Part shown: one piece after another, positions 41,060 through 44,095 of the stretch | How the letters are laid out: each line of letters opens with the position of its first letter | Numbering within the stretch: the first letter of the stretch is position 1 | Origin: Crassostrea angulata | Taxonomy: Eukaryota | Assembly: GCF_025612915.1 (NCBI RefSeq) | Contig: NC_069114.1 | Span: 49,642,639 to 49,706,638, forward strand | Direction: 5' to 3' | Length of the DNA stretch: 64,000 nucleotides | Made by a program: the position numbers and the translations under genes | The notes under the pieces: model-generated | The model's database searches: none | The model's input: the letters and a program-made list of their open reading frames with translations, nothing else | What the model was told of the DNA's origin: nothing

Positions 41060-41350
41060 CTTACCAAAGTAAAATTATTGCTGCAACAATGCCGCAATAT
41101 TGCGGCAATATTGCAGCAACACATTTTTGTTACCAGAAACCAGATTTTAAGACTAGTGAAATGTTGCCGCTAGCTGCAACAACTTCTGGTAACATTTTGG
41201 CAATACTGCTGGAGTGTTGCCGCTAGCGGCAATAACTTCTGGCAACATTCTGGCAATACTATTAGAGTTATTTCTGTAAAAAAATATATTAACATGCACC
41301 TAGAATATTGCCACTAGCTGCAACGACTTCTGGTAATATTCTGGCTACAA
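41060..41350. repeat. Block of palindromic GCAATATTGCCGC / TGCCGCTAGCTGCAACAACTTCTGGTAACATTYTGGCAATACT tandem repeats (left arm of foldback-like structure)
   Basis: Shares inverted similarity with the 43590-44095 block. Confidence 0.7.
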
Positions 41351-42099
41351 AAAGTATCATACTGCCAGAAATAATTTTCTGGTAACATCTACATGTATTT
41401 GATAATTTTAATCATGAACTAATTTATACATAATATATATTATTCGATCTGGCAACACTGCATCATATTTGATTTCTGCTTTAATTAAAATTTAAGGAAA
41501 AGCCAAGCAGTGGAGGGGGGTTAAAAATTGTCAATTATTTAGATATAATTTCAGTTATAACACCTCAAAATTTGCCAGAAGTTTACCACAAACTTGTCTT
41601 TTTCCTCTGATTTATTATGCTTACCGAGCTTGCAAAAGCTTTAGCAGAATTTAGACTTATAAAATTTTACACATTCATCACAAGTCTAAAACTGGTATAT
41701 AATTGCATGAATTGCTTTTGTATGTACATGTCCCCCCCCCCCCCCCCCAAAAAAAAATTAATAAGTCGAAAAAATTAAATCTAATAAATATTTTATGATT
41801 AAAGTCTTATTCTAAGAAAGTCTCAATTAAAAAAATCCAGTGATATTCTCTTCAATGGCATATAACTGTTATGCATGGTTAATTACGATGTTTCACTATA
41901 AAAGACAGTTTGAATCACCCCCCCCCCCCCCAACTCATGTTTTACGTGAATACCCACCTGTCTGTTCTTTTGTAACGGTATTTTCTTTTTTATTAAGTTA
42001 AAATATCAGTCTACTTAGATTTGAGTATCTAAACTGCTCGATGCATGTTGAATTAAGAATTTTCGTTTGCTGTTTGTTTCCACTTTTACTTTCGTTTCA

Positions 42100-42262
42100 A
42101 TGTTAAGTTACGCGCGCGCTGATTGGTCGATCAAATCGCTAGCCGCCAATTTTCACATTCGAAGCTGCCATGTTGTCTGCCATCGAGCCTCCTGCCATCA
42201 CTGGAGATGGTGAAATGAATGAAATACGGGAATTATCTGTAAACAAGGTTAAAAAACCCCAC
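42100..42262 (+). promoter_or_regulatory. CpG-rich promoter-like segment with two CCAAT boxes followed by a Kozak ATG mini-ORF ending at a GT donor (MLSAIEPPAITGDGEMNEIRELSVNK|gt)
   Basis: GCGCGCGCTGATTGGTCG (inverted CCAAT) and GCCGCCAATTTT, then gctgccATGttg at ~42168 and aacaag|gttaaa at ~42247. Lies inside the foldback-like structure in TEP1 intron 46. Confidence 0.3.
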
Positions 42263-43589
42263 TGTCAACGGAGTGTTTATCTGTGAAAAAAATATCAACG
42301 GCTGAACTGAGGACGAATCTGAGTGAACGAATCGAGTGTTGACATCCCCTGCACCATCTGCATGAGCACGTTTTTGAAAAAGTAAGTTTAGCAATAAAAA
42401 TATATTCATTGAATAGCAGTTTAAACATGTTTGTTATAAGAAAATAAACCGAAAGACTGCGATCTACCATTATATCAATGGGTTCAACACTGTTTAAGAA
42501 CCATGCGCGGATCTAGAATTTTATTCGGGGGAGGGGGGGGGGGGGGGTCCGACGGTTATTTGAGTTTGCCAGGGGAAGGGGTCCGAGGGATATTTTTGGT
42601 AATTTTATAATGTAATTTAAAAAAATTTGAAGGGGAACTGCTTAAAATATGAAAACAATTGCCAATGTGCTTAAATGAAATCCATTTATCTTCCCAGTAA
42701 GTCTGCCCTGTGTTACACAGACCTGAAGAAAACCATGAAAAAAGCTGTCACCTTACTGATTAAATGAATGGTGCAACTGGCAACCAAAAAAGAATGATGG
42801 CATAATTTGTTTAAGATTATGGAGAGGAACATATACACAACAGTGCTGAATTCCAATGTGGATATTGTTGTGATATTCTGATAGCTGTTTTTGTGATTGT
42901 TTATGTGTGAAATCAGAACTCAAAAAAAGGACATTTGGAATGCCTAGGACGAATGCTTTGATCAATCGTAATACAGCAAGTGGTTGTGCAGGACTTGTAA
43001 ACAATATGGTTTGAGCTTTGCTTACGGTAAACAGTGAACTTTTGTCCATATCCGTCTGTGCGCGTTGTGTCAATCCGTCTGTGCGCGTTGTGTCAATCAA
43101 ACTGCAATACATGTTATTCTGCAGCACCAAATTGTCACTGATTGGCTGAGTACTTTTAGTCAAGTTTCATCATGATTTGTTCATCATATTTGTGTTTATT
43201 GTATTTATAAAATGTGTTAAATTTAAAGATTATTAATTTTAACTGGTGTCCTTTATAAGCATGTTGAAATTCCAGTTTCAGGTCTCTAATATTATACATT
43301 ATATTTTTAATTCAATACTTATTTTGTGCATGTTACATTGAATAAAATAATTTTTTTACTTCTTTAATATTGTGTAATCACAAACTTTTTTTTATTTTTT
43401 ATTTTTGAAAAGTCCAAATTTAATGTAATGCAAAATGTTAGTCTTGTTGTAACCTTTTTGTATCTTTAAAAAAATAAAACTGTAGTGGCAATGAAAGATT
43501 TTTTTTTTCATTTTGGTTGTAGATTAATATAATATACATGACTGATTTACTGTATACATTTATTATTTATAAATATTGCATATATTGTA

Positions 43590-44095
43590 CCATTGATGCC
43601 AGAGCACAGAAAATGCATTGAACCAATATTTCTGCAATGTCATTTTTCTTATGCAAATGTATTGCCAGAAAGGTGTTGTCGCAACAATGTGTTGCAGCAA
43701 AACTTTTGCGGCAACATCTTTCTGGCAATATTGCCGCAATCTCATTTGCATACGAAAAACGCTACTGCAGCAACATTGCCGCAATGTATTGCCAGAAAGG
43801 TGTTGTTGTGGCAACATCTTTCTGGCAATATTGCCGCAATCTCATTTGCATACGAAAAACGCTACTGCAGCAACATTGCCGCAATGTATTGCCAGAAAGG
43901 TGTTGTCGCAACAATATGTTGCGGCAAAACTTTTGCGGCAACATCTTTCTGGCAATATTGCCGCAATCTCATTTGCATACGAAAAACGCTACTGCAGCAA
44001 CATTGCCGCAATGTGTTGCCAGAATGTTGCTGCAGTATTGCTGCAATAATGCCAGAATGTGTTGCCAGAAGGTCAATATTTTGGTAAGGGACATA
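43590..44095. repeat. ~120-bp tandem repeat (~4 copies) rich in TTGCCGCAAT/TTGCGGCAAC palindromes (right arm, inverted relative to 41060-41350)
   Basis: Direct reading. The unit is ...GCAACATCTTTCTGGCAATATTGCCGCAATCTCATTTGCATACGAAAAACGCTACTGCAGCAACATTGCCGCAATGTATTGCCAGAAAGGTGTTGT... Confidence 0.85.

Follow-up and report, generated by a model that had tools for sequence, protein, structure and literature searches.

The 64-kb stretch of the Crassostrea (Magallana) angulata genome analyzed here (NCBI RefSeq assembly GCF_025612915.1, contig NC_069114.1, forward strand positions 49,642,639 to 49,706,638; hereafter the window, to which all coordinates refer) contains two plus-strand coding exons of a WD40-repeat gene separated by an intron with GT..AG boundaries. 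The joined translation of these exons (40804-40943 and 44118-44329) matches WD40-repeat open reading frames (ORFs) in a public protein collection. The intron holds two motif-rich blocks (approximately 41058-41357 and 43612-44090) that enclose a non-coding interior and had been flagged in an earlier, model-generated note on this DNA. Taken together, the observations described below make it very probable that the interval 41058-44090 is a copy of a non-autonomous class II transposon with terminal inverted repeats, inserted into what was an intron of ~140 nt with duplication of 2 bp (AC) of the target.

The boundaries of the element follow from comparison with alleles that lack it. The joined exon translation was used as a protein query, which identified short ORFs reading from the left flank directly into the right flank, and the respective contigs were fetched; both these contigs and those with other copies of the family come from Logan assemblies of public sequencing runs. 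Five empty-site contigs from five different runs (L001, L003, L015, L016, and L017) have flanks 96–97% identical to the window, and a sixth one (L002) is more distant, with 82% identity. All six encode the same two exons. Their alignment with the window ends at 41057 and picks up again at ~44091-44097, without intervening sequence, and the intron measures 139–143 nt compared to 3,174 nt in the window. The perfect 11-bp terminal inverted repeat (41058-68 and 44080-90) coincides exactly with the empty-site breakpoints; a third match to CCCTTACCAAA at 63382 lies beside a poly-G run and was set aside as a chance match. The empty site reads GGAAC-ATTTTTT-GAATAT (one allele begins the run with T) whereas the filled site reads GGAAC-element-AC-ATAATTT-GAATAT, the stretch between the element and GAATAT being ACATAATTT; in other words, the empty alleles are GGAAC(A/T)TTTTTTGAATAT and the filled allele is GGA-AC-element-AC-ATAATTTGAATAT. 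The right flank ACAT of the window is the same as ACAT in the empty alleles L015-L017 and L002. Given that AC is present in one copy in the empty alleles but in two copies in the filled one, and that removal of the element together with one AC restores the empty-site length exactly, the insertion therefore duplicated 2 bp of the target. A duplication of 8–10 bp was not found: the left flank TTTGGAAC and the right flank ACATAATT do not match, and the empty site permits only 2 bp. Thus, the limits proposed previously (41060 and 44095) enclosed real blocks but shift to 41058 and 44090, and the target-site duplication that was to be sought at the ends is indeed seen, as AC, in the comparison of empty and filled sites.

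Furthermore, the same right end adjoins unrelated flanks at four other loci, represented by L004 (the same locus as L014), L005, L006, and L013. These relatives were located through a spurious ORF that extends across the right arm, and members of the same cluster added further contigs. The homology always stops at ...(G/A)GTAAGGG (GGTAAGGG or AGTAAGGG) and is followed by unrelated sequence that begins with TATC in L004/L014, TATT in L005, GTAC in L006, and AGGG in L013. Although they represent different loci, L004 and L013 share 99% identity within the element, suggesting that the family moved recently. The number of units in the right arm varies among the copies, and the interior is shared with them from 42824 on (from 42824 in L006, 43240 in L004, and 43283 in L005). 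By BLAST, the 64-kb window contains no further copy; scans with DNA patterns yielded no matches in bacterial and archaeal genomes, none in viral contigs, and five chance matches without further similarity in JGI metagenomes. The element thus combines terminal inverted repeats located at the insertion boundaries, a target duplication (in one insertion) and copies at unrelated loci, as expected of class II elements, and the interpretation of the locus as a DNA transposon that carries both terminal inverted repeats and subterminal arrays, already put forward in the earlier note, is upheld. All features are collected in Table 1.

Table 1. Features of the element and of the host gene in the window
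Feature	Coordinates	Strand	Basis or remarks
Whole element, very probably a non-autonomous transposon, 3,033 bp	41058..44090	.	Empty-site alignment breaks and 11-bp terminal inverted repeats
Left terminal inverted repeat, CCCTTACCAAA	41058..41068	+	Exact reverse complement of 44080-44090
Right terminal inverted repeat, TTTGGTAAGGG on the plus strand	44080..44090	-	Pairs exactly with 41058-41068
Left copy of the 2-bp target-site duplication, AC	41056..41057	.	Empty/filled comparison
Right copy of the 2-bp target-site duplication, AC	44091..44092	.	Empty/filled comparison
Left subterminal repeat region	41069..41357	+	11-nt array and three 53-nt units; DNA fold z = -8.0
Left 11-nt periodic array, TATTGCNGCAA x4	41076-41119	+	Array itself palindromic, centre 41098/41099
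Left 53-nt units, three	41149-41201, 41202-41254, 41293-41345	+	Repeat analysis
Right subterminal repeat region	43612..44079	+	Tandem units and 11-nt array; DNA fold z = -12.9
Right-arm tandem units of 127, 100, and 127 nt	43656-44032	+	Each with hairpin-forming inverted motif pairs
Right 11-nt periodic array	44016-44063	+	Repeat analysis
Non-coding interior	41358..43611	.	No ORF >137 aa; Pfam matches at noise level only
CpG-dense patch with two CCAAT motifs, promoter-like	42050..42156	+	Composition; outside the segment common with L012
Dispersed-repeat segment holding the "mini-exon" (ATG 42170 to AAG 42247)	42157..42318	+	90.7% identical to the end of L012
Perfect tandem duplication, 23 bp x 2.1, private to the window copy	43050..43098	+	L006 has a single copy
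Host WD40-repeat gene, upstream exon	40804..40943	+	Translation conserved in P0012 and P0018; donor CAG/GT at 40943/40944
Host WD40-repeat gene, downstream exon	44118..44329	+	Acceptor CAG at 44117; precomputed WD40-type Pfam matches on orthologous ORFs

The two palindrome-rich repeat blocks reported at the ends of the region are present and account for nearly all occurrences of their characteristic motifs. Among the 15 copies of TTGCNGCAA in the window, 14 are located within the blocks (0.98 expected from shuffling), as are all 10 copies of TTGCCGCAA (0.28 expected); TCTGGCAAYA occurs 11 times, always inside the element, with 10 copies in or beside the arms and one at 41448 (0.28 expected). 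The density of GCAA/TTGC half-sites per 100 nt is 5.3 and 8.8 in the two arms versus 0.7–0.8 both for the interior and for the window as a whole. In effect, subterminal regions of 300–500 bp are filled with the short palindromic motif TTGC-N-GCAA, usually with CTGGYAAYA alongside and partly at a spacing of 11 nt. Each arm on its own is strongly self-complementary (see the fold z-scores in Table 1). The reported inverted orientation of the two blocks holds for the 11-bp terminal repeat and for an imperfect match that covers approximately the terminal 65 nt (local score 49, compared to 22.3 +/- 3.2 with a maximum of 36 in shuffles), but BLAST detects no longer inverted identity between the arms. 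The repeat unit, previously given as 120 bp, is not confirmed at this length, with the right-arm units measuring 127, 100, and 127 nt and the left arm consisting of 11-nt and 53-nt repeats. No tRNA was detected, and Rfam returned only sub-threshold matches to microRNA hairpins (at most 42 bits, against gathering scores of 60–100) that reflect generic hairpins.

No protein-coding potential is detected in the interior. No ORF in the element exceeds 164 aa, with the long ones being artefacts of the repeat arrays, and the Pfam screen, which covered every stop-to-stop segment of at least 34 aa, gave nothing above noise for the element (best E-value 0.054, 12–14 bits against cut-offs of 27 bits). 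This copy, lacking coding capacity, is therefore non-autonomous. The poly-C and poly-G tracts mentioned in the earlier note are found inside the element (poly-C at 41732-41748 and 41918-31, poly-G at 42533-47) but are not specific to it: the window contains 18 runs of C or G of at least 10 nt, and the same count rules out the "inverted pair" of such tracts (41732 and 42517) as the ends of a nested element. Such runs occur, for example, at 4271, 6328, 8320, 32751, 54324, 55200, 58272-58646, 60672, and 63324-63400, several of them followed by a run of A, and look like either a genome-wide feature or the ends of a repeat family. The direct duplication described as 22 bp long at 43058-43110 also exists, albeit with a unit of 23 bp and at a slightly different position (Table 1).

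The interior also includes the GC-rich segment that had been described as containing two CCAAT boxes followed by an ATG frame ending in a lysine codon and GT. All these elements are there: the CpG-dense patch (10 CpG per 100 nt, with an observed/expected ratio of 1.75 compared to 0.43 in the window), ATTGG at 42122 and CCAAT at 42146, that is, two CCAAT motifs within 30 nt just upstream of the ATG at 42170, and a 26-codon frame that ends at AAG/GT (42247/42248). Conceivably, this segment could be a promoter with a first exon, belonging to a nested gene or to a former transposase gene, from which transcription would start at ~42150. When 1.84 billion representative proteins were searched exhaustively, however, the 47-aa frame of the mini-exon matched just two sequences and no real protein that starts with this peptide. 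One of the two, P0022, is a repetitive protein of 874 aa and was dismissed as a low-complexity artefact; the other, P0023, is a spurious 43-aa ORF located at the end of the unrelated, transcript-like contig L012 (Logan SRR24489471) and derives from another DNA copy of the 42157-42318 segment. L012 consists of an uninterrupted coding sequence for 277 aa followed by a 3' tail, with the matching stretch at 1239-1396, and because of this organization was probably assembled from RNA; the 277-aa product is presumably related to zinc-type alcohol dehydrogenases/prostaglandin reductases. The homology between the window and L012 starts at 42157, i.e., past the CCAAT/CpG patch and 13 nt before the ATG, a position that would fit a transcript start if L012 were a chimera of two RNAs, but it crosses the proposed GT donor with frameshifting indels, and the 26 codons differ from L012 by four non-synonymous substitutions and one synonymous. 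Hence the "mini-exon" is part of a dispersed non-coding repeat. Moreover, GTTAAA makes a weak donor, no Pfam signal marks an exon further downstream, and the CpG patch of ~100 nt falls far below the length of a CpG island. We therefore regard an interior gene start as unlikely, even though the CpG/CCAAT patch itself may possess promoter activity. Judging from the match to L012, the 42157-42318 repeat appears to be dispersed and transcribed at least in a 3' tail, unless L012 is chimeric, and the interior as a whole is best described as a putative mosaic of non-coding sequence, one piece of which comes from another dispersed repeat. Separately, a short frame at 42344-42387 (...IPCTICMSTFLKK) runs up to a consensus GTAAGT donor at 42382; it contains a C-x2-C motif reminiscent of the beginning of a zinc-finger or RING exon, without Pfam support.

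Several other classes of mobile elements share some features with this one and have to be considered. The earlier note proposed a Foldback-type element or one with large terminal inverted repeats, i.e., one in which long inverted arms made of tandem subrepeats pair with each other; such elements are typically related to Mutator or P and produce target duplications of 7–10 bp (8–10 bp in the Mutator type, 7–8 bp in the P type). Like Foldback elements (Drosophila FB, Tetris), the element is non-coding, lacks a transposase, carries at both ends arrays in which the same short motif abounds, and varies in the number of tandem units between copies; an intact gene for a FLYWCH- and MULE-containing transposase is even present 2 kb upstream. 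The arms of Foldback elements, however, are mutually inverted over hundreds to more than 1,700 bp and are accompanied by duplications of 8–10 bp, as in Tetris and FB (PMC4079207), whereas here the mutual inverted similarity is limited to ~65 nt, the unit lengths differ between the arms (53 nt on one side versus 100/127 nt on the other), and the duplication is 2 bp. The upstream MULE region, for its part, is bordered by other inverted repeats and contains none of the motifs. The Foldback-type reading accordingly does not hold, and we consider it very improbable. A bivalve host, inverted repeats of ~11 bp, tandem repeats that contain palindromes and hairpins, and a T-rich target (AC/ATTTTTT, where the slash marks the insertion point) also bring to mind the Helentron-derived non-autonomous elements (HINE), a tandem-repeat, "MITE-like" type of rolling-circle element that includes pearl/DTC84, is known from oysters and clams, and abounds in oysters (PMC4067079, PMC3879986). 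These elements consist of a left flank, central core repeats, a microsatellite and a right flank, have one subterminal inverted repeat, and are flanked by T or AA/TT in an otherwise unmodified target (PMC3879986, PMC4067079). In the window, by contrast, each inverted repeat lies at the very end of the element, the tandem arrays occupy subterminal positions on both sides instead of the centre, there is neither an adjoining tetranucleotide microsatellite nor a stem-loop beyond the 3' inverted repeat, and the element is preceded by C and followed by A, with the AC duplication, instead of T on both sides or AA; a Helentron origin is extremely unlikely.

The remaining alternative is a non-autonomous element related to piggyBac or to Tc1/mariner whose flanks have mutated at the window site. 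The 5'-CCC...GGG-3' termini and the short, 11-bp terminal repeat combined with subterminal repeats indeed resemble those of piggyBac-like elements, some groups of which carry such subterminal repeats (PMC5381638), and two of the four other right flanks (L004 and L005) start with TA, or three if L006 contains one extra G. Against this stands the empty site, GGAAC/ATTTTTT, in which neither TTAA, the defining target of piggyBac (PMC5381638), nor TA, which Tc1/mariner requires, is present at the insertion point; TTAA is also missing from all five right flanks, and the flanks in the window (AC, the dinucleotide that is duplicated) and in L013 (AG) are not TA. Both assignments are, in our view, highly unlikely.

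Known non-autonomous transposons with subterminal transposase-binding repeats include dSpm, a derivative of En/Spm of the CACTA type, and Ds, a derivative of Ac of the hAT type. The element is similar to both in having short terminal inverted repeats, several hundred base pairs at each end packed with a motif of ~10 nt in both orientations, no transposase gene, and a short duplication. It differs from Ds and other hAT elements in that 2 bp rather than 8 bp are duplicated, with no 8-bp duplication at the site, and from dSpm and the CMC(T) lineages in that its termini are CCC..GGG rather than CA..TG (PMC12730594); no link to CACTA or hAT was obtained at the sequence or protein level. For the CMC lineages (CACTA/Mirage/Chapaev), in which duplications are 2–5 bp and termini are 5'-CA..TG-3' (PMC12730594), the duplication length fits but the termini do not. 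More generally, a duplication of 2 bp is incompatible with hAT (8 bp), Mutator/Foldback (8–10 bp), P, piggyBac (TTAA), PIF/Harbinger (3 bp), and Spy (none). Within the PHIS group (PIF-Harbinger, ISL2EU, Spy), duplications are 0, 2, or 3 bp (PMC12730594). Spy elements insert between AAA and TTT without duplication and have the termini GGANNNNG (PMC4122938), whereas the element has the target AC/AT, a duplication, and the termini CCCTTACC. ISL2EU elements are characterized by a DDE transposase with a THAP domain and a second ORF with a YqaJ domain. They are present in Crassostrea, prefer AT-rich targets and generate duplications of 2 bp, typically AT (PMC4122938). The duplication in the window is of the same length but has the sequence AC, as seen at a single site. 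ISL2EU is thus the least contradicted candidate, with nothing that would positively link the element to it.

The assignment of the locus to a non-autonomous transposon with terminal inverted repeats also has to be weighed against several observations that do not favor it. The 2-bp duplication is known from one insertion for which both flanks and the empty site are available, and two or three substitutions adjoin it. Among the Logan contigs of the family, the left end of another copy was not recovered. Neither an autonomous copy nor a transposase was found, and no oyster genome was searched with the DNA of the element. Finally, the empty-site samples represent either the same species, in which case the difference is a polymorphism, or close relatives, in which case the insertion is lineage-specific. 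The filled allele was recovered from no other sample by the joined-exon search, and exact look-up of ten ORFs of the element gave no matches in the protein collection. Whichever of the two applies, lineage-specific or polymorphic, we consider this a genuine and well-delimited insertion.

We propose that a DDE-type transposase would be supplied in trans by an autonomous relative, bind the phased TTGCNGCAA/CTGGYAAYA arrays and pair the two ends; as in other transposons that carry subterminal repeats, the 11-nt phasing would place the bound proteins on one face of the helix. The transposase would then cut at the 11-bp terminal repeats and integrate the element with a 2-nt staggered cut. Because no autonomous copy or transposase was found, both the mobilization in trans and the role of the motifs are what we infer. 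Once inserted, the element is presumably removed together with the host intron by splicing.

The neighborhood of the element contains other mobile and repetitive sequences. Two kilobases upstream, on the minus strand, an intact ORF of 467 aa (37745-39148) encodes a protein identical to C. angulata XP_052707126.1, in which Pfam recognizes a FLYWCH zinc finger (E-value 7e-10) and a MULE transposase domain (E-value 3e-14). The GC content of this region is ~49% compared to ~35% around it, and the ORF is flanked by 25-nt inverted repeats (37183-37207 and 39778-39802) that are 96% complementary. The cluster of this protein at 90% identity includes 16 members, among them several intact 467-aa copies on different Logan contigs. 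This is probably a young Mutator-like element that resides one intron further upstream in the WD40 gene; a target duplication was not identified at its ends. Tandem repeats, too, are unusually abundant in the window. Immediately beyond the host exon, at 45325-47968, there is a 27-bp minisatellite of ~99 copies (80% match, unit TGACACACAGACAGACCTAAATAACAA) that creates long spurious ORFs on the minus strand, and at 12681-16408 a 37-bp array of ~101 copies (89% match) that causes the strong AT and GC skew at 13–16 kb. Additional minisatellite arrays are found at 61154-62824 (31 bp x 53), 22302-22869 (43 bp x 13), 48685-49395 (57 bp x 12.5), 54545-55070 (189 bp x 2.8), and 56853-57421 (complex, with units of 31/62/168 bp).

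A bolder interpretation is that the family represents an undescribed cut-and-paste lineage, recognizable by termini of the form CCC...GGG, a target duplication of 2 bp other than TA and palindromic TTGCNGCAA arrays phased at 11 nt, which might still be active in Crassostrea and could plant the CpG/CCAAT patch as a live promoter in host introns; we find this rather improbable. The element has no demonstrated host function, and no new biological principle is indicated: the transposon at 41058-44090 is an ordinary mobile-element insertion that enlarged the host intron about 23-fold. Its termini and 2-bp duplication nevertheless fit no common superfamily, and the identity of the transposase would settle this small question of classification. 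The absence of the insertion from the six related sequences implies that its presence or absence could serve as a marker in the C. angulata/C. gigas complex.

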